From a virus: a stretch of 37,753 nucleotides of DNA. The notes under the pieces are model-generated. The model saw only the letters and a program-made list of their open reading frames with translations, had not been told where the DNA came from and made no database searches. Both the position numbers and the translations under genes were made by a program. The DNA lies in IMG/VR virus record IMGVR_UViG_3300012346_000262, positions 1 through 37,753 of that record; one strand, given 5' to 3'. Of the stretch, positions 3,999-37,753 are shown in pieces. Each line of letters begins with the position of its first letter. Positions within the stretch are counted from its first letter, which is position 1.

Positions 3999-4228
3999 TG
4001 CAATCTCCTATTGAAAATTGAATCTTGCCATTCTTTTTTCTTTTTTATATAGGTGTTTTCCCTATGTACTTTCTTTTTATCCACAGCTACCCAAGGTGAA
4101 CATTGTTCATCCGCTCCATTCATAATCTCATTGAAATATATGAACCAAGTGCCAAGAGGGGTTAAGTCATCTCGAAAGCTGCTAACGGGTTCACATATCA
4201 GCTTTCTGTCTGCAAGTCGCTCAACCAA
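3935..4228 (-). CDS. possible small ORF with TTG start (97 aa as drawn); the real extent is doubtful
   Basis: The TTG at 4228 follows GGAGCAAGCG. However, the frame runs through motif copy 2 and 64 nt into mazG. Confidence 0.25.
   Translation of the reverse strand: MVERLADRKLICEPVSSFRDDLTPLGTWFIYFNEIMNGADEQCSPWVAVDKKKVHRENTYIKKKKEWQDSIFNRRLQCNTKKWCSGYLSSPTIRQVD
4049..4063 (-). promoter_or_regulatory. Copy 2 of the conserved motif, upstream of the mazG-helicase-methylase operon
   Basis: Minus strand reads ACATAGGGAAAACACCTATATAAAAAAG, about 50 nt upstream of the mazG ATG. Confidence 0.55.
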
Positions 4229-4701
4229 CGCTTGCTCCAGTGTTAATCGGTTAGTCTTACCGTCTGGGTGTCATTCTTGAGTACGGGCGATTTCAACCCT
4301 ATTAGCTAACCCGCTCTGAGGGGTAAAGATTGTTTAGTAGTGGCGGCAGGACGGCCAGTCCCTGCAATATCACTGTTTGACGTGACCCACAAGCTGCGCC
4401 TCGTGTTTTACCACCGCCTAGACGCAGACTAACTATCCTCCCAAGGTCGTTAACCCTTGCATTTCGGCTGTTTGGTTGCCCGTTAGCTTGCGCTTTTACA
4501 ACCATTCACCACTACTAAACAATCTCAGCGGCCACAAAGCAAAAGCCCCACTAGGTGAACGGGCTAAGGCTTGGTTGCCACCTCGGAGCCGCAACGACGG
4601 ACATCCTAAGCTTTGTCAAACCCGCTCGCCTAGTGAGGCTTACGTATTCGCTTCGTTGAGCTACTACGGGTTACCAATCCGTAGATATTCGCATTATGCC
4701 A
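4229..4701 (-). ncRNA. Candidate structured non-coding RNA or long leader 'A'; core 4311-4531 is closed by a 16-bp perfect helix plus a 7-bp outer helix
   Basis: About 470 nt without a credible ORF in a tightly packed genome. GATTGTTTAGTAGTGG (4328-4343) is the exact reverse complement of CCACTACTAAACAATC (4509-4524). Outer pairing is 4311-4319 with 4525-4531. Internal hairpins include GCAGGAC-GGCCA-GTCCCTGC (4346-4365). Strand is assumed from the neighbouring genes. Confidence 0.45.
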
Positions 4702-4721
4702 TTATTTTTCAGGTGTCGCAA
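4693..4721 (-). promoter_or_regulatory. Sigma70-like promoter candidate (TTGCGA-17 nt-TGgCATAAT) pointing into region A
   Basis: Minus strand reads TTGCGA (4721-4716), a 17-nt spacer, then TGG CATAAT (4701-4693). It overlaps the 3' end of ORF 4702..4905. Confidence 0.35.
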
Positions 4722-4905
4722 TACCCTGCACAAATTTATTGCAATTCCTAAGCGCAATAACCCAAGCGCTCATTTTGTTAGACGGGTATTCCCTATGCGC
4801 GATGTATCTTTGGCAGGTTTCTCTTCGCTGGCAGTACTCAGGCTCAACGTCTGACCATATTTCACCATCACATCTCTGCGCATCTCTGGGTAAGTTGTGT
4901 GTCAT
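4702..4905 (-). CDS. hypothetical protein (67 aa)
   Basis: The internal ATG at 4905 follows GGAGAATGGAAA and overlaps the upstream stop (ATGA). Confidence 0.55.
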   Translation of the reverse strand: MTHNLPRDAQRCDGEIWSDVEPEYCQRRETCQRYIAHREYPSNKMSAWVIALRNCNKFVQGIATPEK

Positions 4906-6113: not shown

Positions 6114-6128
6114 AGGGTAAACACCTAT
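6114..6128 (+). promoter_or_regulatory. Copy 3 of the conserved motif, driving the rightward early operon
   Basis: TTGTGT ACTAGGGTAAACACCTATATAAAAG reads as a -35-like TTGTGT, a 17-nt spacer and TATAAA. It lies about 48 nt upstream of ATG 6182 in the divergent intergenic region. Confidence 0.6.
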
Positions 6129-6181
6129 ATAAAAGCGCTTTGCTTGGCTTTATAGTTACACCATCTTAACTAGGAGCAGCA

Positions 6182-11521: not shown

Positions 11522-11768
11522 TGGCTAGCTCCTTTTCAGTGATGGTTAGAAACTCAGTTCGCACGGTTTCGCGGTCTACGTAGCGAATCTCCGCTTTCCT
11601 CGTTGTGTCGCGGTTTGCGTCTTGCTGTGCCCTTGCTAGTCGTGCTGATTCTGCGCGGTCTAGCTCCCATTCTTTTGTTATCGTGGCTTTGCCGGATGTA
11701 TAGGCTTTCCAATGGCTAGCCGCCAATGCTAGGGCAATGATTAGCGCGGCTACGATGCGGAGATTCAT
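11433..11768 (-). CDS. i-spanin (Rz-like)
   Basis: N-terminal TM 'IVAALIIALALAAS', then a charged coiled-coil region. Lies directly after the endolysin gene. Confidence 0.75.
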   Translation of the reverse strand: MNLRIVAALIIALALAASHWKAYTSGKATITKEWELDRAESARLARAQQDANRDTTRKAEIRYVDRETVRTEFLTITEKELANESTNLVSCRLDAGDIGLLNKAASTARED

Positions 11769-12373
11769 CCTAGCGCATCCCCCGCTTTGTCTGTTAGTGC
11801 AATCCTGTGATCTAGGCCGATTGTGCCGCCGTTCACTCTTTTAGACACGCGAACAGTATCGCCCATCATCGCGTCAGGTACTTTTTGCTCCCACCACGCA
11901 ATAGCTGATTTAAGCGCCCATTCAGGCTGTGCGAGTAAATCAGGATCGGTTACTAGGTCAATCCCAAGGGCATCGCCCACGGCTTGATAATTGTCTTTTC
12001 CTGTCACTTGGATAAGCCCGCGCCCGCGATATTTCCAACCATCGCCAAACTCAGTATTACCTAAGCGTCCGTTATATACCTTGTTGGCAATCCTAACTGG
12101 TTGTCGTTCTAGCTCTTTTGCTGAGTCGTTGTTAAACCGTGTTGGCCAAGTCCGAAGCAATGCCGCCGCGCTGTAATTGAGATTCTCTTCAACGTGTTCG
12201 AGCAATCCTGATTCATGCAAGATTTGCCCCAAAAAGTCGTCAATTTCAGAAGCGCCCGCGCTAAATGCTGAGTCTGTTACGTGTGCGCTGAAATGCTCTG
12301 CCCATCTTGCAGCGGTTAGAGGGCGAACGCCGCATTGAATTAGGATATCGTTCCATTGGCTGGGGGTTTTCAT
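11765..12373 (-). CDS. endolysin, glycoside hydrolase family 19 (chitinase-like)
   Basis: 'FLGQILHESGLLEHVEENLNYS' and 'YRGRGLIQVTGKDNY' match GH19 signature motifs. Confidence 0.85.
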   Translation of the reverse strand: MKTPSQWNDILIQCGVRPLTAARWAEHFSAHVTDSAFSAGASEIDDFLGQILHESGLLEHVEENLNYSAAALLRTWPTRFNNDSAKELERQPVRIANKVYNGRLGNTEFGDGWKYRGRGLIQVTGKDNYQAVGDALGIDLVTDPDLLAQPEWALKSAIAWWEQKVPDAMMGDTVRVSKRVNGGTIGLDHRIALTDKAGDALG

Positions 12374-23310: not shown

Positions 23311-23340
23311 AAGAGAAGCCCCCTCGTGAGAAGGGGCAGC
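23311..23340 (-). terminator. rho-independent terminator after the major capsid gene
   Basis: Minus strand reads GCCCCTTC-TCAC-GAGGGGGC (8-bp stem including one G-U, tetraloop) followed by TTCTCTTT. It begins 13 nt after the coat stop. Confidence 0.7.
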
Positions 23341-23350
23341 GCTTTAGCGC

Positions 23351-24520
23351 TTAGTTGTTGTGGTAGCGAACTGCAAACTGTGGACGCAAGGTCTTGTAGC
23401 CGTACAAAATATCAACACGGCAAGGGAGTTTGTCGTTGTTGATATCGTACTGGCGAACCACACGCATAGAGATGCCGTCAAGGGTTTGACGCGAAGAGAA
23501 GTCCACGCCTTGAGGCATAACCAAATCAGCCGTTGCAAACGCGAAGGCTTCTTTTTGGAACAGCAACGAGGTTTGAACCGTGGTGGATGCCGTGCCTTGG
23601 AACGTGATAGCAGCGTTATCGGCTGGGCCAGCGTTGACGTTCTGAGTTGCGCCAGATGTCACGATTGCAGGGCTGATAGACCACGCGGTAGTGGTGGCGC
23701 CAGAGCCAACAGTGAACTGTTGCAGAACGCCGGTAGAGACTTTCGTCTCAGGGTGAACAGCAAACACGTTTGCAATGGTGAACACATCACCAGCCGAAGG
23801 AGCGCCAGTGCCGGTATCCACGTTCAACGTAGAGCCGGTTTGCGAACCGCCTTGGATGAGGTAGTTCACAGCAGCGCTGCGAGCGTGAGCAGGCATCAAG
23901 GTGTTTTCAGACCAATCAAAGCCAGCAGCGCGACCCATGTAGCCCTCTTTGTACTGATCTGCAAGGCTCTTGGCATCTTGGAACAGCGTCTTTGTGTCTT
24001 TCACCACATCAGCCATTGCCAGAGAGTCCATCAAAGCGGTGCGATCATTAGCAGGGGCTAGGGCGCGTTGCAGCAGTACGCGAGCGTCCAATGCTTTGTT
24101 ATAGGTAGCAGCAGAGCCGCCATTCCAAACAGAGTTGTAAACGTCTTTGTACATGCTCAGAGCATCGGCTTCGACGTTTGCAGCCAAAACAGTCATTGCG
24201 GGTTCAATGATGCGCTTGCTGAAGTCGTCAATCGAGAGGGTAAGCTCTGCGGTAGAAAAGTTCATACCGACGTGCTTTTGCGTCGAGACTTGCATGGTCA
24301 CGCTAGATTCGGTCGTATCTTGCGTGGTCAGTGTCGCGCCGTTGGTCACGGTGTATTGGTTAGGCAAGCGAATTTTCAGCGAATCGCCGATTTTCGCGCC
24401 GGACTTGGCATAAGAATCGTCATATTGACGAACGATATTGCCAACGAAGTTGAGTTTTTGATGCAGGATTCGGAGAGATTCGCGAGTCACTGCGGTAGGG
24501 GTAAGTAGAGTATTAGGCAT
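23351..24520 (-). CDS. major capsid protein, P22 coat (gp5)-like family
   Basis: N-terminus 'LLTPTAVTRESLRILHQKLNFVGNIVRQYDDSYAKSGAKIGDSLKIRLPNQY' is typical of P22-coat-family proteins. It follows the scaffold gene and is followed by a terminator. Confidence 0.8.
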   Translation of the reverse strand: MPNTLLTPTAVTRESLRILHQKLNFVGNIVRQYDDSYAKSGAKIGDSLKIRLPNQYTVTNGATLTTQDTTESSVTMQVSTQKHVGMNFSTAELTLSIDDFSKRIIEPAMTVLAANVEADALSMYKDVYNSVWNGGSAATYNKALDARVLLQRALAPANDRTALMDSLAMADVVKDTKTLFQDAKSLADQYKEGYMGRAAGFDWSENTLMPAHARSAAVNYLIQGGSQTGSTLNVDTGTGAPSAGDVFTIANVFAVHPETKVSTGVLQQFTVGSGATTTAWSISPAIVTSGATQNVNAGPADNAAITFQGTASTTVQTSLLFQKEAFAFATADLVMPQGVDFSSRQTLDGISMRVVRQYDINNDKLPCRVDILYGYKTLRPQFAVRYHNN

Positions 24521-28162: not shown

Positions 28163-28593
28163 TACGGTGTCTTGGTGATTTCAAAGTGACCATCAGCAGC
28201 CACAGTGAATGTATAACTAGAGCCATCAGGCAGTGATACAGCCGTTCCGTGGTCGTAATATCCAACTAGCTCATCACTTGCCGCTGTGTCGCTGTAAATC
28301 ACGATATAGCGGAATGTTGCCATCGTGCCGCCGCTGGCCGTAAACGAAAAGTCATTAGTATCCCATCGCCACACGCCCGCGCTAGGTTGGGTAAAAGCAA
28401 GCCCAGTAAGAGTTACGCCGCCAGTTGTATAACCGTTTGTGCCTGAAATTTGCGTAATGTTGGCTAATACGGTATTAGTGGCTATGGGCGCGGTATTAGT
28501 TAACGCTGCCTTGAACGTATGCGTATCAAGGTCAATCGTGCCATCTCCGATTTCTCCTGCCGCTGCGTTAAAAAGTGTGAATGTACTAGGCAT
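28162..28593 (-). CDS. hypothetical beta-type protein (143 aa)
   Basis: The ORF overlaps the portal 3' end by 8 nt. Confidence 0.55.
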   Translation of the reverse strand: MPSTFTLFNAAAGEIGDGTIDLDTHTFKAALTNTAPIATNTVLANITQISGTNGYTTGGVTLTGLAFTQPSAGVWRWDTNDFSFTASGGTMATFRYIVIYSDTAASDELVGYYDHGTAVSLPDGSSYTFTVAADGHFEITKTP

Positions 28594-30724
28594 CTGTTAC
28601 CCCTTCTGTAATTGGTTCGTCGATAACAATGCCCTCGTAGATAGCACCAGAAGGCGCTCTGAGCATCATCTTTCTTTGCTTTGGCGTGACTTGCGCAACT
28701 GCAACGGCTTCTTGCGCGTTAGATGCTGCAATATCAGCCTCTACCTGTTTAGTAGGTAGCATTGCTTGCATTCTGCGAGTCTCAGCCTCGTATGCTTTGA
28801 TCTCTGCTTCCTTGGCATTGATCTCCATGTTCTTACGGTCAATCTCCATCTTCATGGCTTCGATTGCCTGAGAGTTGGACTCGTTTTTGAGTTGTTCTTG
28901 TAGCTGTTGAATCTGACCTTGCAGCACTTGGACGGCTTGTTTTGCCTGTTGATCCATAAGCTGCATCTGCTGCGTTGCTTGTTCAAGCTGTGGGTTTTTG
29001 CCTTGCAAGTGCGGCGGTAAGGTAGCCTTGAGACGCTCTGCCAACTCCTCAGCACCCGGCCAATCGAGATTGCGAGCCAATAGATCACCGGCAACTTGTC
29101 CCATCTGTGGGAACGAACGGCTAAACTCGATCATCTGAGCCGCAGCTTCTTGGCGCTTCGTTGCGTAGCTTGGGCCGACTTCACAGGTTGTATCGTATTT
29201 CCCTGCGCCTAGATCGAATATTTTAGCTACTTGCTTTGTCTCTTCGAGTAGCTTGACTAGCTTGCCGTTAGGGTCTAATTGAGCGGGTTCATTACCACCG
29301 ATTCTGACCATCTCGTTAGTGTCATCCTCATGGATAACTCGGATAATCCGCTCAGTGTTGTAAACCTTTGGGATAAGGTCAACAACGATGCGCCCAACAT
29401 GGCGAATAGCGCGGCTCAGGTTGTCGATATAGTTGAACGTAGCCGTATCGCTTTCACGCTGTCTTTGCATGATTGCGCGGCCAGATGTTTCATTAGACCG
29501 TGAGCCTAAAGCAGCATCGTAAATGCCCATTGTGGACTTCATATCGTCCGAAGCATTCAAGGCTTCTTGAAGCACACCAGCCGGAACACCTGCGAAGGGT
29601 TGACGCTGTGGAGCTACGCCGCCGTCATATTCCATGTAAGCGTGGCTTGTCGTGTTTGCCGTTGCCCACTTGTTGCCATCAGTCTTAAACGCACCACGAG
29701 GGCCGATAAAAGGGGCTTTTGGAGCGAGTGCGACTAACTCAGTCGAGGCACTGCGCCAATAGTTGAACATCTGTTGCGGGTCACGCGCCCAGCGAGTTAG
29801 CGAGATAAAGTGCCGCTTACCGTCGATATAGACCTCATCGCCGTACACCGGGACAATGGGGATGTATTTGCCTGCGAAGTCGTTAGTCTCTAAGACTTCT
29901 GCGCCACTCATGATGTACTGAGTGACCTTCCATGTCTTTGATTGTCGCGTACCAACGATGGTGACGCCCTGCATATCCAAAATGTCTTTGATCTTTAGAT
30001 ACTCAGGCTCAAACAAAACCATACCATCGCTGAGTTTTAAGAGAGTCGCGGGTACTTCCTTGCGCTTCCAATACTCAGCCACACGAACAGCATCATCATC
30101 GCGCCAGCCAGCGGGTAAATCCATGTAGGATTGTTGCCAGTCTGATTTCTCTGCGGATTTCCAGCGACTGTTAAATTCTGCCTCGCTGTAAACCTGAGTG
30201 ATAAAGCATTTTGTCCAATCGGATGAATCGGGAGCTACTGAGCGCTCATCACCGTACACACTTAGCGGGTCAACGATTCTATCAATGCAAATATCTTGGT
30301 CAAACTCGTCGTCATTGGTGTAATCGGTACTGATTCGGATATACCCAAAGCCACCTGTCACCGCATTGTCTAGTGCTGTATCGTAGGCAACATCGGCTTG
30401 AGATTGATACTCGATATTCTTAATCAGGCCGTTATAGATCGTGGCCGTTACTTTGTCGGAGTCGCTGCCAACTGGATGCACTTTGATCTGTGGCTTATTC
30501 TGCCTTGCGTCGTTCAACACACTGCGAAGCATCGCAGGCAAACGATTGATTGTGAGGCATGGCCTGCCGTCTAGCTCTCGTTGTTTCTTGACCGCTTCCG
30601 GCCATTGCTCCCCAAGCCTCGCAAAGCGCACATCATCCGCATAATTGATGCGATTGTCAGATTCTGCATCTTCGGAGAGTTTGAACTCTTCGAGCGCATC
30701 CGAGATGATGTCCTTATCGCTCAT
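28586..30724 (-). CDS. portal protein, P22 gp1-like, with a long C-terminal helical region
   Basis: 'KYIPIVPVYGDEVYIDGKRHF' parallels P22 '[20 protein letters not shown]', and 'TCEVGPSYATKRQEAAAQMIEF' parallels '[23 protein letters not shown]'. 712 aa with a Gln-rich coiled C-terminus, directly downstream of terL. Confidence 0.85.
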   Translation of the reverse strand: MSDKDIISDALEEFKLSEDAESDNRINYADDVRFARLGEQWPEAVKKQRELDGRPCLTINRLPAMLRSVLNDARQNKPQIKVHPVGSDSDKVTATIYNGLIKNIEYQSQADVAYDTALDNAVTGGFGYIRISTDYTNDDEFDQDICIDRIVDPLSVYGDERSVAPDSSDWTKCFITQVYSEAEFNSRWKSAEKSDWQQSYMDLPAGWRDDDAVRVAEYWKRKEVPATLLKLSDGMVLFEPEYLKIKDILDMQGVTIVGTRQSKTWKVTQYIMSGAEVLETNDFAGKYIPIVPVYGDEVYIDGKRHFISLTRWARDPQQMFNYWRSASTELVALAPKAPFIGPRGAFKTDGNKWATANTTSHAYMEYDGGVAPQRQPFAGVPAGVLQEALNASDDMKSTMGIYDAALGSRSNETSGRAIMQRQRESDTATFNYIDNLSRAIRHVGRIVVDLIPKVYNTERIIRVIHEDDTNEMVRIGGNEPAQLDPNGKLVKLLEETKQVAKIFDLGAGKYDTTCEVGPSYATKRQEAAAQMIEFSRSFPQMGQVAGDLLARNLDWPGAEELAERLKATLPPHLQGKNPQLEQATQQMQLMDQQAKQAVQVLQGQIQQLQEQLKNESNSQAIEAMKMEIDRKNMEINAKEAEIKAYEAETRRMQAMLPTKQVEADIAASNAQEAVAVAQVTPKQRKMMLRAPSGAIYEGIVIDEPITEGVTDA

Positions 30725-30763
30725 TGCGTTCCTTTTGTGTAGAGTTTACCAAAAATACAACAC

Positions 30764-30778
30764 AGGGTAAACACCTAT
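30764..30778 (+). promoter_or_regulatory. Copy 4 of the conserved motif, oriented antisense to the flanking terL and portal genes
   Basis: + strand reads CACAGGGTAAACACCTATGGACATTATACG in the 70-nt terL-portal gap. On the minus strand a TATAAT hexamer lies just upstream of it. Confidence 0.4.
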
Positions 30779-30794
30779 GGACATTATACGCAAT

Positions 30795-32213
30795 TTATCC
30801 TAACCACGAAACTACTCTATTTTCTGTGCGTTTTGGCTCAATTTCCACCACTGCAAAGCGCTTCATCATCATGGCGTATCGGGTTGCAGAGATCAAATCG
30901 TCGTCTAGCTTGACTATTTTCCCGTCTTTGCGGTGATACATCCTAAATTCTTCAAACCAGTCATTTAAGTGGCTAAACACCTTTAATCTACCAGTTTGCA
31001 TCCTGTCTAGCATTTCCATGATGCCAGCCTCTACGCTATTACCTCCAGAGCCTTCTTTTTCACCATCTTTAGGGGCAAAGGTAGCGCGGTCTGGGAGCAT
31101 GTTCAAGCCTTGCTCTTTGTACTGAGCGGCCAATGTCTCTCCGCTGCCTTTATCGTGCTGTAAACCGTCATGCGGCCATGACCAAGGCAACCAATCACCC
31201 CAAGGCTTTACCGTGGCTGCGAATAATATCGGGGTTTGCTCTTTCTGGCGATGCGCAGAAATAACATAAAGAATGTCTGAATCTCTATCCCATGCCAATC
31301 TAGCCGCAGCGCTTGGATGATCCCATCCAAAGTCAAGCCCTGCAATCTGCGCCCAGTGATTAGGTATTGGGAATGCGTCAACCTTAATAGATTCCTCAGT
31401 AACTGGGAAAATACGCCCACTGCCTAGCGTCGGTATGCCTTTAGTTCTAGCTTCTCGCTCATGCGCAGGGTAACTATTGATGATCTCTTGCCGCTGTTCT
31501 GGCGTGTAATGCTCTGCATCATCAATCGTCATGCTTGTTACACACGTTCCCGGCATTTTGTCTATCAAAAAGCGCTTAACTACCTCGCTCATACCCTTTA
31601 ACGGGGTAAACGTCATGTAAACAATGCCTTTTGTGGCATTAGTTCGCGTCAGAGCCTCGGTGTAGATTTCAGCATCTGGCTCTTCATCAAGCCATACAAA
31701 GTCTAGGGTTTCAGCTTGAAACTTCTCGCGGCCTTGATCGTAGCTCTTAAACCCTAATAGGCTTTCACCAGCCTGCACATCGCCGCCGCCACCCCATTTA
31801 ATCACCATTGTGTCTAAAGCATCAGCCACTCCGCGCTTCATAGACTTATCTTTGATAGCATCCATCGGAATAGCTCCTGTCCCGATAGAGTTGATTCGTC
31901 CAGCCAACACCCTTTGCACCGAATCTCGCGTAACTTCGCTAGTTACACCAGCAGCCCATCCAGCAACGGCCTTATTAAAGGTTTTGCCTTTCCACCAATC
32001 AGGATAGCGCCCAGTCAGGTGCATCGCTGTTTCAAAGCCAGCCGACCATGTTTTACCTAATTGATTGCCCGCCATCAACAGGCGCTCTCTAAAATCCGCG
32101 CCTTTAGCGTGAAACTCCGCTTGTTTTGTGTAAGCCTTGTATAGCCTTAACTGATTGCCATTGATTCGCCTTTGCTTTTCCTCCAGCAAGGCTAACAGTT
32201 CCAGCTTGTCCAT
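30795..32213 (-). CDS. terL: terminase large subunit
   Basis: Walker A-like 'MAGNQLGKT', 472 aa, located between the small terminase and portal genes. Confidence 0.85.
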   Translation of the reverse strand: MDKLELLALLEEKQRRINGNQLRLYKAYTKQAEFHAKGADFRERLLMAGNQLGKTWSAGFETAMHLTGRYPDWWKGKTFNKAVAGWAAGVTSEVTRDSVQRVLAGRINSIGTGAIPMDAIKDKSMKRGVADALDTMVIKWGGGGDVQAGESLLGFKSYDQGREKFQAETLDFVWLDEEPDAEIYTEALTRTNATKGIVYMTFTPLKGMSEVVKRFLIDKMPGTCVTSMTIDDAEHYTPEQRQEIINSYPAHEREARTKGIPTLGSGRIFPVTEESIKVDAFPIPNHWAQIAGLDFGWDHPSAAARLAWDRDSDILYVISAHRQKEQTPILFAATVKPWGDWLPWSWPHDGLQHDKGSGETLAAQYKEQGLNMLPDRATFAPKDGEKEGSGGNSVEAGIMEMLDRMQTGRLKVFSHLNDWFEEFRMYHRKDGKIVKLDDDLISATRYAMMMKRFAVVEIEPKRTENRVVSWLG

Positions 32214-32647
32214 TATTCTGTTGACTTTGCAAGCTGTTTAATTCGAGCGTCAATTTGCTCCTCGGTTAAATCTGTAAGCGTGGTCTTTTGGTCAATCTCG
32301 ATCTTTTCCCCGTAAATCTTAGGGAGCATCTTGGCAAGCATCCATTTGCGGGTATCTACCCTAAGCCTGTTTCTAGCAACTGAGCCAGCGCTAAGGTCTA
32401 GCTTGACATCTTCACCATCGTATTTAGCCTCTAACGTCACTTCATCAGAGATTTCCAGTATCTCATCAGCAAGCAGTCGATAGCCAATATCTCTAGCCCG
32501 TGTGTACTGTGTAAAAAAATCAGGGTTTTGCTTAGTCCAGTTAAGAATTGTTCTCGCTGATACCCCTTGAGATTCTGCCGCCTTCCTAAGGCTTTGCCCA
32601 TCTTCTAGCAAATCGCATACAGCGTCGGCTATTTTTTGATCGTACAT
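32213..32647 (-). CDS. terS: terminase small subunit (HTH type)
   Basis: 'IADAVCDLLEDGQSLRKAAESQGVSARTILNWTKQNPDFFTQYTRARDIGYRLLADEILEISDE' fits the common HTH small-terminase pattern. The start is taken at ATG 32647 (RBS AAAGGAATCCAT). Confidence 0.7.
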   Translation of the reverse strand: MYDQKIADAVCDLLEDGQSLRKAAESQGVSARTILNWTKQNPDFFTQYTRARDIGYRLLADEILEISDEVTLEAKYDGEDVKLDLSAGSVARNRLRVDTRKWMLAKMLPKIYGEKIEIDQKTTLTDLTEEQIDARIKQLAKSTE

Positions 32648-32671
32648 ATGGATTCCTTTGGATTGTCCACC

Positions 32672-32687
32672 GTTGCGGATTCGCAAC
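32672..32687 (-). other. 6-bp hairpin GTTGCG-AATC-CGCAAC in the 58-nt gap upstream of terS
   Basis: Perfect inverted repeat seen in the sequence; function unknown. Confidence 0.3.
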
Positions 32688-32705
32688 ACATGCCGATATT
32701 ATAGA

Positions 32706-32951
32706 TTATCTTGCTTGTCCCATGTCAACTAGGTACGTACTGTTTTTTACATGGCCTTCGCTTTTTAACAGCATTACTCTTCGCCGTTTACCTTCCGCAA
32801 TAATAATTGCTTCATCGCCTATTCTTTTTGGCGTTCCCACTACAAATAGTGGAATGTCATCTCCATCTGTTGCAACAGGAATAAGCCCAAAACCGGGGAT
32901 GTTTACGCAAAAACGGTTTTTTGCTTTTTTGAAAAAAGGCTTGTTTTCCAT
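32706..32951 (-). CDS. hypothetical protein (81 aa)
   Basis: ATG 32951 follows the strong RBS AAGGAGAATC. The longer listed ORF would run into the closing helix of region B. Confidence 0.6.
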   Translation of the reverse strand: MENKPFFKKAKNRFCVNIPGFGLIPVATDGDDIPLFVVGTPKRIGDEAIIIAEGKRRRVMLLKSEGHVKNSTYLVDMGQAR

Positions 32952-33342
32952 GATTCTCCTTATAGCTATCAAGTGAGCGGGCTAGGCTTGATACTAGCTC
33001 CATCGCATCCTATCTATTGACACAGGATAAAGCCCTGCTGGATAGCCCTATTGTTCTGCGTGTCCTCATCCAAAACCGGTTTAGACTTAGCTTTCGCTCC
33101 ACGCCGCCGCTCACTTGATAGCAGTTGTCCGGAATTTCCGGATAACTCAATTGATAACTATCAGAACTGCGGATTGTTTGCGGCATTTCAGCCCATATCA
33201 ACTCAATCCGCATGTGTGAAAGCTCTCATTGCTGAGAACTTCCCCAAAGCCAGCTTATGGCGCTGTGCTTATGCCAGTTCCCGTTAAGACCCTACGAAGT
33301 CTAGCTTTTTCAAGTCTCGGGATACATTCATTATCTCAAATT
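32952..33342 (-). ncRNA. Candidate structured non-coding RNA or leader 'B'; core 32965-33122 is closed by a perfect 16-bp helix
   Basis: About 390 nt without an ORF, downstream of motif copy 5. GCTATCAAGTGAGCGG (32965-32980) is the exact reverse complement of CCGCTCACTTGATAGC (33107-33122). Further helices: GCGGATTG/CAATCCGC (33169-33176 / 33204-33211), a 7-bp stem with a GCAA tetraloop (33222-33239) and GCTAG/CTAGC (32981-32998). Confidence 0.45.
33128..33142. promoter_or_regulatory. 15-bp perfect palindrome TCCGGAA-T-TTCCGGA; candidate dimeric protein-binding site
   Basis: Read directly. It is followed by two GATAACT direct repeats at 33141-33147 and 33153-33159. Confidence 0.35.
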
Positions 33343-33474
33343 GCCTCAAATTTTGCAATAATTGCTCGGCATTGTTTTGCCACAACATTGTTGCCTTTAA
33401 GGGTAGCGATTACCAGCACGCTACGCGCTTGATCTGCGTTTGTCACTGTGTAGCCCATTACTGTGTATGCCATG
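33343..33474 (-). CDS. small protein (43 aa; below the ORF-track cutoff)
   Basis: RBS CTAGGAGTAAATCATG. Hand translation: MAYTVMGYTVTNADQARSVLVIATLKGNNVVAKQCRAIIAKFEAI. Confidence 0.45.
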
Positions 33475-33533
33475 ATTTACTCCTAGTTGCGTTGTTGATG
33501 CCTCAATTATCATCCTGTCCAACACACTTTTAT

Positions 33534-33548
33534 ATAGGTGTTTACCCT
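33534..33548 (-). promoter_or_regulatory. Copy 5 of the conserved motif, at the head of the morphogenesis (late) operon
   Basis: Minus strand reads ACTAAGGGTAAACACCTATATAAAAGTG. It overlaps the stop of ORF 33548..33742. Confidence 0.55.
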
Positions 33549-33742
33549 TAGTATTTGATGATTTTTGAGCGTTCGATGCAGATATATCCGCTTGAGCCGC
33601 GCATCAGTTGCCCGCCAGCTTTATGGCATTTCACTTGGTTTTCGTGCAAATATTCCATGTGTTGCACCGCATAACCAACGAGTGCCGCTAAAGCAACCAG
33701 AGGCCACCAATCATAAATAAACCATTTGATTCGATCAAACAT
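33548..33742 (-). CDS. small membrane protein (64 aa)
   Basis: One TM segment, 'WWPLVALAALVGYAV'. Confidence 0.55.
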   Translation of the reverse strand: MFDRIKWFIYDWWPLVALAALVGYAVQHMEYLHENQVKCHKAGGQLMRGSSGYICIERSKIIKY

Positions 33743-33760
33743 AGTACAATTCTCCGTCTC

Positions 33761-33982
33761 CTAGCCGTTTACGGCTTTTCCCTCTTCGGAGGGATTTTTT
33801 TGTTTTAGTCTTTCTAGCGCTTTTTCCATGCGCTCAAAATAGTAGTTAAAAGCCACATCCCCGTGAACTTCTTGCCCACAGTTTAAGCATGATGCGCTTC
33901 CGATTGTGTTGTAACCATATGACCTAAAGCCATGGGTATGACTGCAAATTTCATGCTTGCCCGGCGTTTCCTGAGTTGACAT
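33761..33982 (-). CDS. hypothetical Cys/His-rich protein (73 aa)
   Basis: ATG 33982 follows GGAGAAAAGA. Contains 'CSHTH...CLNCG'. Confidence 0.5.
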   Translation of the reverse strand: MSTQETPGKHEICSHTHGFRSYGYNTIGSASCLNCGQEVHGDVAFNYYFERMEKALERLKQKNPSEEGKAVNG

Positions 33983-34181: not shown

Positions 34182-34399
34182 GGCTTGTCAGCCTCGTGCC
34201 TTGTGTTCCATGCGTCAATCGCATCTTTCTGAGCTTGTTGCATCCATTCGTCTTTTGTTCCGTTTCCAGATGTCTGTACGCGAACTTCTCCGCACGTTGC
34301 GCCACAGCCGCCACACTCAGCAAGCAACCATCGAAACGTCGAACCCTCTATAAAATCAAGTCCAACGTGACCGCAAAAAGGGCAGGGCTTTATGCTCAT
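34178..34399 (-). CDS. lar: Lar-family restriction alleviation protein
   Basis: 'IKPCPFCGH...ECGGCGATCG...AIDAWNTR' matches the Lar family pattern (CPFCG...C..C...WN.R). Confidence 0.7.
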   Translation of the reverse strand: MSIKPCPFCGHVGLDFIEGSTFRWLLAECGGCGATCGEVRVQTSGNGTKDEWMQQAQKDAIDAWNTRHEADKP

Positions 34400-34851
34400 A
34401 GCTCCACCACCTCGGGCGCTTTTCCCCTGATCTTTTTCATTGTCTTATCAATCATCCGCTCGAATGTGGATAGGTCTATGCTTTGTCTCTGTAGGTCGGC
34501 ATACTCGTACACATCGCGCATTGCTTGTAATCCTAGCCCCGTAATGCCCATTCTGAGCGTCTTTTCGTAGCGTTGCTGGCTTTCTATCAATGCTGCCTGT
34601 AATCGCTGGCAAGCCTCTAATGCTTCGTTTCCAATGCCTTCCAATGCTGTTGTCTCGCAGACATTGAGCATAGCCGTCATGGTCTGCCAATCTTGCAGCG
34701 TGGCTTTTCCCTTAGCGAACGATTCAATCGCGGCCAATTCAAGCAATCGCAGGTTTTGTAATCGCTTTTCTGGCAGGATTGATGCGCCCTCGATTGCGTG
34801 GGCTATCGGGTTGACCAGCTTGTACACCTTGCGTTTAGTTCGCTTTCTCAT
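34396..34851 (-). CDS. hypothetical protein (151 aa)
   Basis: ATGA-coupled ORF, helical and basic at the N-terminus. Confidence 0.6.
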   Translation of the reverse strand: MRKRTKRKVYKLVNPIAHAIEGASILPEKRLQNLRLLELAAIESFAKGKATLQDWQTMTAMLNVCETTALEGIGNEALEACQRLQAALIESQQRYEKTLRMGITGLGLQAMRDVYEYADLQRQSIDLSTFERMIDKTMKKIRGKAPEVVEL

Positions 34852-37207: not shown

Positions 37208-37214
37208 GATTGAT

Positions 37215-37229
37215 ATAGGTGTTTACCCT
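37215..37229 (-). promoter_or_regulatory. Copy 6 of the conserved motif, immediately upstream of ORF 37007..37207
   Basis: Minus strand reads ACTAGGGTAAACACCTATATCAATCATG. It overlaps the stop of ORF 37223..37405. Confidence 0.5.
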
Positions 37230-37539: not shown

Positions 37540-37730
37540 GCTTTTACAGGCTTATGGTTTTCGTCCAGTTTGTAGGCTACATTGGCTTTTATCCCATCTT
37601 CGCCAACGTAAGCAACCACCGTTCTTGGTCGTTTGCCATCCCAGTATTGGAAGTGCATCGTGGCAGAGTCGCCTCCGGTCATCGTGGCAGAGTTGCCACC
37701 GGTCATCGTGGCAGAGTCGCCTCCGGTCAT
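37536..37730 (-). CDS. C-terminal 64 codons of the junction-spanning protein (remaining octapeptide repeats plus a short C-terminal domain)
   Basis: The ORF-track protein MTGGDSATMTGGNSATMTGGDSATMHFQYWDGKRPRTVVAYVGEDGIKANVAYKLDENHKPVKA continues the frame of 1..870 across the circular join. Its TGA stop overlaps the next ATG (ATGA). Confidence 0.8.
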   Translation of the reverse strand: MTGGDSATMTGGNSATMTGGDSATMHFQYWDGKRPRTVVAYVGEDGIKANVAYKLDENHKPVKA

Positions 37731-37753
37731 CTTGGCATAGTTGCCTCCGGTCA
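37656..37753 (-). repeat. 24-bp coding tandem repeat (units catcgtggcagagtcgcc[tc]ccggt), continuing at 1-69
   Basis: Units at 37656, 37680, 37704 and 37728 continue after the join at 22-45 and 46-69. That is six near-identical 24-bp units, each encoding TGG[DN][SY]A[TK]M. Confidence 0.9.
37731..37753. repeat. 23-nt terminal duplication of positions 1-23 (circular closure or assembly overlap)
   Basis: cttggcatagttgcctccggtca occurs identically at 1-23 and 37731-37753. Confidence 0.9.

Follow-up and report, generated by a model that had tools for sequence, protein, structure and literature searches.

The IMG/VR virus record IMGVR_UViG_3300012346_000262 (37,753 nucleotides (nt), analysed over its whole length and referred to here as the window) is a whole JGI metagenome contig; the phage behind it is podovirus-like, and its structural genes, which all lie on the minus strand, are of the P22 type. 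Ahead of its packaging genes is a gap of about 390 nt (positions 32952-33342), which a preliminary description made from the DNA letters had singled out as structured and free of open reading frames (ORFs). Here we show that this gap is the template of a non-coding minus-strand RNA, which is built of self-contained domains laid end to end and which we name the array. As judged by comparison of related sequences, selection acts on the RNA of the sense (minus) strand, and this RNA is conserved, non-coding and multi-domain.

Five homologous copies of the array were found at the same place in raw metagenome assemblies (contigs L079, L084, L085, L088 and L101). These relatives were reached via the small terminase gene terS, via a 151-amino acid (aa) protein encoded upstream of the array, and via one metagenome scan with a DNA word; this single scan yielded L084 and L085, plus a chance match inside a coding gene (L086). 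All comparisons rest on six closely related, mosaic sequences, i.e. the window and the five contigs, and this relatedness inflates the statistics. The six genomes share the following order: a 20-nt motif box, a small ORF (different in each genome and absent in L101), a sigma70-type promoter-like site, the array, optional small ORFs, a second promoter-like site, the gene at the terS position, and terL. The domains of the array in the window are the following.

33280-33321, minus strand: hairpin H1 of the 5′ domain, present in the window and L079 only, inside a 125-nt block that is 94.4% identical to L079.
33247-33270, minus strand: hairpin H2, identical in the window, L079, L084 and L085, and absent from L088 and L101.
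33218-33242, minus strand: hairpin H3 with a GCAA (GNRA) tetraloop, present in the window, L079, L084 and L085.
33156-33224, minus strand: core domain, consisting of helices C1 and C2 that enclose a variable interior, present in all six.
33128-33142, minus strand: stump of domain X (UCCGGAAAUUCCGGA), a remnant of the 3′ hairpin of X; the window has lost the remainder of this domain.
32965-33122, minus strand: domain Y, 158 nt, with a perfect 16-bp closing helix (33122-33107 with 32980-32965).

The 3′ strand of each domain runs into the 5′ strand of the next one without a linker. Per domain, the closing helix and the first and last hairpins are conserved and the middle varies. The core, which is the only domain universal to the six copies, is closed by C1 (33224-33217 with 33163-33156, with one U·U mismatch in the window), in which GCUUUCACAC pairs with GUGUGA(G/A)AGU located 60-110 nt downstream. 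Directly inside C1, the 8-bp helix C2 (33211-33204 with 33176-33169) closes an interior that is different in every genome. The interior of the L079 core (700-760) contains GGUUCGAUUCC, a canonical tRNA T-loop sequence; despite this T-loop-like stretch, ARAGORN detected neither transfer RNA nor transfer-messenger RNA genes in the window or L079. The 3′ side of H3 overlaps the 5′ strand of C1, and the two pairings compete. An unrelated hairpin, CCCCG-GAAAGA-CGGGG, precedes the same GCUUUCACACAUG in L088 and L101 at the place where H3 stands in the others, and the 5′ part of L101 contains about 270 nt of additional structure.

All five relatives retain an intact domain X, which is closed by a helix of 16 bp (GUUCUUUAAGAUAGUG / CACUAUCUUAAAGAGC) and contains a 5-bp 5′ hairpin Xa with loop GUGAUGA, a variable middle, and then the 3′ hairpin Xb, whose intact form is GCCGG-AAAUUCAUCA-CCGGC (5-bp stem). 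Xa and Xb have loops (GUGAUGA and UCAUCAC) with 6-7 nt of complementarity. In the window no copy was detected with a covariance model of X, and over about 1 Mb of retrieved loci plus the window this model recovered only its five training copies. Domain Y is present in the window, L084, L085 and L088, with identical arms, an identical hairpin Yb and three different interiors. Its hairpin Ya (GCGUG/CACGC, 33104-33100 with 33062-33058) carries a loop of 37 nt in the window (31 nt extra) versus the usual 6-nt GAAGGA. The loop of Yb (32998-32981), UAUCAAG, repeats part of the Y 5′ arm and can pair with CUUGAUA of the Y 3′ arm, which gives an alternative structure. Many GNRA loops are found across the array.

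Covariation provides the evidence for an RNA. In the six-sequence alignment of the core helices 94.4% of the cells are paired; column shuffles matched the core-helix values in 1-3 of 500 cases, slid registers pair at about 40%, and RNAalifold predicted the same core helices unaided. Five of the eight C2 pairs are changed on both sides. The Xa stem occurs as GCGCA/UGCGC, as GCUCC/GGAGC, and as GUGCA/UGCGC with a U·G pair, so that two of its five pairs are changed on both sides, and a U-A pair of the Ya stem is replaced by G-C between copies. Helix C1 has one invariant G·U pair, plus a U·G that alternates with U-A. The complementary strand would have A·C mismatches in place of these pairs, and a DNA cruciform could not contain them either; they indicate that the conserved structure is that of the sense-strand RNA. 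In all six copies the sense strand also folds better than the antisense strand, by 8-22 kcal/mol. The outcome of this check on the six copies is that helices of the array are kept in the relatives and covary.

The helices that had been proposed for the window were recovered independently. A repeat search confirmed the perfect 16-bp inverted repeat at 32965-32980 / 33107-33122, with 126 nt enclosed, for which we estimate a chance expectation of about 0.004 within 500 nt anywhere in the 37.7 kb (37753 x 500 / 4^16). The 8-bp helix at 33169-33176 / 33204-33211 (minus-strand arms GCGGAUUG / CAAUCCGC) is present in both the minimum-energy and the centroid folds and is the core of a longer detected repeat. 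Likewise, the GCAA-capped 7-bp stem at 33222-33239 was confirmed, and it extends to about 11 bp (33218-33242). The minus strand of a 411-nt stretch folds at -137.1 kcal/mol, compared to -113.0 ± 6.5 kcal/mol for dinucleotide shuffles (z = -3.68), and one of 100 shuffles folded as well; for the array of L079 z = -5.1 was obtained. The gap is not strictly devoid of ORFs, since a 67-aa ORF with an ATG start exists on the sense strand (33010-33213), but it is free of conserved ones: among the relatives the sense ORFs of the array differ in frame, start and length, and none is present in L088. This lack of conservation between copies rules out a protein gene.

The conserved blocks of the array exceed the neighbouring genes in identity. 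Their identity to L079 is 94.4% over 125 nt versus 79.9% for terS, and to L085 it is 97-100% versus about 88% for genes of the nin region. The bases of the domains are 94-100% conserved, while interiors and flanking ORFs are swapped between contigs. Domain content differs as well: L079 and L101 have no Y, L088 and L101 have no H2/H3, and the window lacks X, and the length of the element ranges from 360 to 520 nt. No match was found among GenBank phages by megablast or blastn with the arrays of the window, L085 and L101 as queries. IMG/VR, probed with terS, the 151-aa protein, a Y-arm 16-mer, a 5′-module pattern and an X 16-mer, returned only distant terS relatives or chance matches and no array, and an 18-mer of X gave four chance matches and no array in GTDB at one genome per species. 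Some of the terS relatives belong to phages without any gap ahead of terS. The independent assemblies L077, L078, L082 and L083 break at most about 200 nt upstream of terS, at or beside the array, which fits a mosaic or variable sequence that confuses assemblers.

The transcription signals around the array are as follows.

33330-33358, minus strand: P_a, promoter-like, TTGCAA-17 nt-TG-n-GATAAT (sigma70-type with extended -10), part of the conserved RNA block.
32698-32728, minus strand: P_b, promoter-like, with perfect TTGACA and TATAAT and a 19-nt spacer, ahead of terS.
33494-33548, minus strand: putative motif-type promoter, with box AGGGTAAACACCTATATAAA (33548-33529), -10-like GATAAT (33511-33506) and CATCAAC (33500-33494).
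33529-33548 (minus), 37210-37229 (minus), 4044-4063 (minus), 6114-6133 (plus) and 30764-30783 (plus): copies of the motif box.

Equivalents of P_a score 10/12 with TG in L079, L085, L088 and L101 in the promoter scan, and across genomes the site takes the form TTG(C/A)xA-17-TGaGATAAT. Homology between genomes begins at the -35 region of P_a, and the ORFs just upstream are unrelated; this indicates that P_a and the RNA move as one block. The P_b site of the window was read directly, its spacer being outside the 16-18 nt range of the scan. Its equivalents are TTGACA-18-CATAAT (11/12, with TG) in L079, L088 and L101 and TTGATA-17-TACAAT in L085. The preliminary description had placed a structured region at the head of the late operon. 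A structured RNA on the minus strand is indeed present, but it is not simply a leader heading terS and terL, as it has P_a of its own and P_b lies downstream of it.

About 170 nt upstream of P_a stands the motif box, of which the window contains five copies versus none expected, and which is found at the head of four operons of the window. In the gap between terL and the portal gene, a degenerate, inverted copy (30761-30783) appears on the gene strand as a weak terminator-like hairpin plus a U-rich run. The 18-mer core of the box occurs in 25 IMG/VR contigs of diverse phages (L102-L126), where it is typically followed after about 19-20 nt by TACAAT or GATAAT and then by ATCAAC, an arrangement also seen in L079, L084, L085 and L088. 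From these patterns the box looks like part of a phage-specific class of promoters that is widespread and in which a conserved upstream box, combined with a -10 of the sigma70 type, replaces the -35.

No sense-strand intrinsic terminator is present in the window array (32950-33340), and hence transcripts would run on into the downstream ORFs. Nor was a terminator found at the end of the RNA in L079, L101 or the window; behind the Y helix, L088 alone has a U-rich tail (UUUUGAUUG), apart from weak versions in L084 and L085. We rejected an intrinsic terminator or attenuator leader as an identity for the array, as there is no position-conserved hairpin with U tract on the sense strand. Further upstream, at 33779-33801, a strong terminator-like hairpin on the plus strand (TCCCTCTTCGGAGGGA, then T7) is oriented against all neighbouring genes. 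It lies within the 3′ end of a 77-aa ORF, is conserved in L084, L085 and L101, and has two compensatory stem changes in L088 (TCCCGGTTCGCCGGGA), which suggests the end of an antisense transcript, or an insulator.

The neighbouring genes are the following.

23351-24520, minus strand: coat gene (PF11651 P22_CoatProtein).
28586-30724, minus strand: portal gene (PF16510 P22_portal).
30795-32213, minus strand: terL (PF03237/PF17289 terminase).
32213-32647, minus strand: terS, Sf6-type small terminase (PF20901), first packaging gene downstream of the array.
32706-32961, minus strand: AAGGAG ribosome-binding site (RBS, 32961-32956) and 81-aa ORF with ATG at 32951, a variable cassette downstream of the RNA.
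33336-33473, minus strand: 45-aa ORF, occupying the variable cassette slot that separates the putative motif-type promoter from the RNA.
34396-34851, minus strand: gene for the 151-aa protein, at the Q-like position of the nin region.
11765-12373, minus strand: endolysin-like gene.

The identity of terL to its closest cultured relatives, Rhizobium and Xylella phages, is only about 59%. The ORF just upstream of the array is of 45 aa rather than 43 aa as previously given; its slot contains unrelated ORFs of other lengths in L079, L084, L085 and L088 and is empty in L101. No family match was found for the 45-aa and 81-aa ORFs, and the exact sequence of the 81-aa protein has no record elsewhere. 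Upstream of the array lies a lambdoid nin-like block that encodes NinB, YbcO, a resolvase-like nuclease, the 151-aa protein, Lar and three to four small ORFs. The 151-aa protein is predicted by AlphaFold to be a helical bundle (predicted local distance difference test score 84), and it has no Pfam family and no significant match in the PDB by sequence or fold. Its relatives comprise at least 130 metagenomic proteins without a Pfam domain, one of which, in L090, adjoins a DnaB-like helicase instead. At 37656-37751 a tandem 24-nt repeat of at least three copies, encoding MTGG(D/N)SAT-type units, reaches the contig end; the assembly probably broke at this repeat, and the genome may be incomplete.

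A second region without ORFs, at 4230-4760 and probably identical to the region 'A' of the earlier reader, folds at -195.6 kcal/mol on the minus strand (z = -5.4) versus -166.8 kcal/mol on the plus strand. Within it are a long hairpin with imperfect pairing and a perfect helix of 17 bp (4327-4343 / 4509-4525) around 165 nt. Just upstream there is a promoter-like TTGCGA-17-CATAAT, and the region precedes a motif copy and a MazG-helicase-methylase operon. When it was compared with X and Y, the only likeness was a marginal one of 19 nt, CAAGCCUUAGCCCGUUCAC, which resembles the 3′ part of Y and whose z of about 3.5-4.4 was reached by the best shuffles too.

As to its function, we tentatively favour, with somewhat less than even confidence, that the array is a cis-acting, processed, structured leader or non-coding RNA of the late transcript. 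The RNA itself would be the agent, mostly in cis, by forming a long untranslated 5′ stretch of the transcript that continues into the 81-aa ORF and then the packaging genes. Through tight folding into clamped domains during transcription, it would hide its 360-520 untranslated nt from Rho, single-strand RNases and RNase E. A double-strand RNase such as RNase III could gain access at the perfect 16-bp duplexes, which abut each other from C1 through X to Y, and cleavage there would free stable domain RNAs and set the 5′ end of the downstream message, and hence its level and stability. The competing pairings (H3 versus C1, and the Yb loop versus the Y 3′ arm) might add a conformational switch. 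The array is independent of packaging specificity, as the same array precedes three types of protein at the terS position. Several points weigh against this interpretation. A strong P_b-type site is located between the array and terS in every genome, and as a consequence the packaging genes may not need the leader at all. The closing helices of X and Y are invariant and yield no covariation evidence from either, and statistics drawn from six related, mosaic sequences can indicate but not prove. The optional domains fit possibly trans-acting RNAs as well as a fixed cis mechanism. Finally, the cleavage by RNase III, the evasion of Rho, the setting of the 5′ end and the switch are all steps that we infer.

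The main rival, somewhat less likely than the leader, is that the array encodes one or more free-standing accessory ('moron'-like) non-coding RNAs, abundantly produced from P_a and acting in trans. Such an RNA might titrate a host factor or a defence system as a decoy or sponge, or its molecules might assemble into a particle through kissing of the X loops, as in phi29 pRNA or the ROOL/GOLLD cages. This is consistent with the conserved promoter that the RNA block carries, a separate promoter-like site serving terS, and with the turnover of the domains, which behave like cassettes in a slot where small ORFs also vary. The second array, at 4230-4700, has the same design and its own promoter-like site and is not a late-operon leader, and the many GNRA loops and the 6-7-nt loop-loop complementarity in X point in the same direction. 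On the other hand, the position just upstream of the packaging module is kept in all six genomes, no terminator ends the RNA in the window, L079 and L101, and the complementarity of the X loops is invariant and thus lacks covariation support. The version in which the RNA is a sponge of the CsrB/RsmZ type for CsrA failed: GGA is not enriched (3-10 per array versus 6-10 expected), only 2-4 of these lie in loops, and the Ya loop GAAGGA is the only textbook-like CsrA site. A long shot is that the array is the founding example of a new class of modular 'ornate' phage RNA, in which clamped domains, their junctions conserved and their tips free, would pass between phages as cassettes, and which would form a particle that self-associates via the X loops (GUGAUGA, UCAUCAC); such an RNA might be a decoy against host defence or a packaging cofactor in the manner of phi29 pRNA, and the array at 4230-4700 would then be a diverged paralogue.

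The preferred reading, a cis-acting processed leader or non-coding RNA, also has to be compared with three explanations that we consider improbable to varying degrees. RNA-based processive antitermination had been the hypothesis of the preliminary description. The nascent RNA, either alone as in put or with Nus factors and an N-like protein as in nut, would here modify RNA polymerase so that it passes the terminators of the late operon; this is improbable in light of the six copies, across which no put or nut feature is kept. The RNA does lie downstream of promoters and ahead of a 20-kb operon with a terminator-like hairpin after the coat gene, there is no recognisable Q protein (the 151-aa protein having neither a Pfam nor a PDB fold match), H2 and H3 are adjacent stem-loops near the 5′ end, and X of the relatives combines a boxA-like stretch with a hairpin. 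But L088 and L101 have an unrelated hairpin in place of H2/H3, the window has lost the boxA-like stretch, polymerases starting at P_b, downstream of the element, would never be modified, and the element is 5-7 times the length of put (PMC9378689). Moreover, the post-coat terminator (23311-23340), previously regarded as a good one, has a poor U tract that is interrupted (UUCUCUUUAG). The case for a dedicated antiterminator is therefore weak, and this hairpin would be an ordinary partial stop after the major capsid gene. Quite improbable, too, is a translational riboregulator in which the Y helix and the competing Yb loop gate ribosome access to the 81-aa ORF. As had been noted, the Y 3′ arm ends at 32965 and is followed by UAU, the AAGGAG at 32961-32956 and the ATG at 32951, so that it stops 3 nt before the RBS; the Yb loop UAUCAAG can pair with CUUGAUA of this arm; and in L079, L088 and L101 a hairpin in the terS leader could cover the Shine-Dalgarno (SD) sequence of terS. 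However, the SD itself is outside the helix, the 81-aa ORF is not conserved, and a promoter-like site rather than an RBS follows Y in L084, L085 and L088. The 3-nt spacing falls at a recombination joint, 'GCUAUAAGGA(G/U)AAUCAUG', that follows Y in the window and X in L101, where different small ORFs stand behind it; because the same joint follows X there, the spacing is not evidence of a designed switch. Most improbable of all is a DNA-level element, whether a recognition site for terminase (pac), an origin of replication, a site for recombination or cruciform formation, or what is left of insertions with terminal inverted repeats that resemble a miniature inverted-repeat transposable element (MITE). 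Some phages keep pac next to terS, the site adjoins terS and has long perfect inverted repeats, and contigs of relatives often break nearby. Against a pac site, the same domains precede three terS types without detectable similarity to one another: Sf6_terminase in the window and L079, Terminase_2 in L084 and L085, and an unclassified 105-106-aa protein in L088 and L101. In addition, there are invariant G·U pairs, one strand is consistently favoured in energy, the compensatory changes preserve pairing and not sequence, and no integrase or replication gene is nearby. The pac or ori alternative of the preliminary description was thus not borne out by the terS types, the G·U pairs and the compensatory changes. 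A MITE was likewise rejected, as the window has no other copy of X or Y and no target-site duplication, and the G·U pairs and compensatory changes indicate RNA.

The array is of interest irrespective of which of these readings applies. Phage genomes are compact, but in this one about 0.4 kb at the array and another 0.5-0.7 kb at 4.0-4.7 kb are given over to RNA structure that purifying selection maintains. The six copies constitute a natural experiment in RNA modularity, in which the bases of the domains are nearly frozen and interiors and whole domains are swapped among mosaic phages, and they supply the design for compensatory-mutation work. The architecture is novel: a chain of clamped domains that is exchanged between phages and stands ahead of the packaging genes whatever the terminase type. 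If it controls the processing or stability of the late transcript, it would be a new regulator beside the Q, N and put schemes of P22- and lambda-like phages. An action in trans, or assembly into particles, would place it with GOLLD and ROOL as a large phage-borne RNA.

The array was also compared with known families. A scan of the whole window against Rfam 15 yielded nothing that reached the gathering score. With a threshold of E ≤ 10, the interval 32600-33800 gave only two chance-level matches to small nucleolar or small RNAs, neither in the array, and scans of L079 and of L084/L085 gave nothing relevant. The families covered include GOLLD, ROOL, HEARO, phi29 pRNA, C4/CI antisense RNAs, group I/II introns, ribozymes, riboswitches, 6S and Y RNA-like RNAs. 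Among antitermination systems, the put RNA suppresses downstream terminators via the zinc-binding domain of the β′ subunit of RNA polymerase, without protein factors. The put RNAs of HK022 (putL/putR) are about 70 nt in length, have two stems in a fixed architecture and are conserved among the phages that carry them (PMC9378689). Like put, the array is folded nascent RNA just downstream of phage promoters and upstream of a long operon, and the 5′ part of the window copy contains two adjacent stem-loops (H2 and H3). Unlike put, it consists of three to four clamped multi-branch domains, H2/H3 are not family-wide, and a further promoter-like site is located downstream. Its length, and the replacement of its sole 5′ two-hairpin unit in L088 and L101, led us to reject put membership. 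The X 5′ arm of the relatives, GUUCUUUAA, matches what we take to be the boxA consensus at eight of nine positions, a similarity noticed after the fact. In L079, L084, L085, L088 and L101, GAGUUCUUUAAGAUAGUGAAU of this arm precedes the 5-bp hairpin GCGCA-GUGAUGA-UGCGC, which comes 9 nt after the boxA-like stretch, and the layout resembles the boxA-spacer-boxB of a lambdoid nut site. In the window this part of X is deleted. Nut-site membership was not supported: the nine boxA-like sites in the window (versus 11.3 expected) show no enrichment and none of them is in the array. No N-like protein was identified among the small neighbouring ORFs, which have no family match, in analyses that did not include a search aimed at arginine-rich-motif proteins.

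Other likenesses concern double-strand processing. In rRNA operons, whose leaders carry boxA elements, the RNase III stalks around 16S and 23S rRNA are long-range helices, and those of the array resemble them in joining the ends of a large folded domain. Known RNase III sites in phage mRNA, such as the T7 R sites and that in the lambda N leader, are simple hairpins, some 50-60 nt long, that contain an internal loop. The array shares with them the presence of stable non-coding duplexes between parts of a transcription unit; unlike in the T7 R sites, its duplexes close multi-branch domains of 100-160 nt with covariation of their own. RNase III sites are regular double-stranded segments of roughly two helical turns; X and Y are closed by perfect 16-bp helices that abut without linkers and could stack, and these are candidate sites of cleavage.

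To our knowledge, P22-type packaging motors need no RNA. GOLLD, ROOL and phi29 pRNA are, like the array, large, multi-domain, GNRA-rich RNAs borne by phages or prophages, with a structural role or none assigned. The rings of pRNA and the cages of ROOL and GOLLD are built from a closing helix and a junction, combined with two hairpins whose loops are complementary (PMC12286853). Domain X has this same design and the array adjoins packaging genes, but unlike these RNAs the array has no Rfam covariance match even at E ≤ 10, and X is missing in the window. A catalogue of candidate structured RNAs from IMG/VR includes elements upstream of terminase genes in viral metagenomes (PMC10690425), and in being structured and lying directly upstream of phage packaging genes the array resembles them. 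It is probably absent from the candidates of this catalogue, judging from our negative IMG/VR probes rather than from a direct comparison of models. Matching no curated RNA family and no deposited phage, the array thus belongs to a known sort of element, the structured phage leader or non-coding RNA, and has a new architecture.

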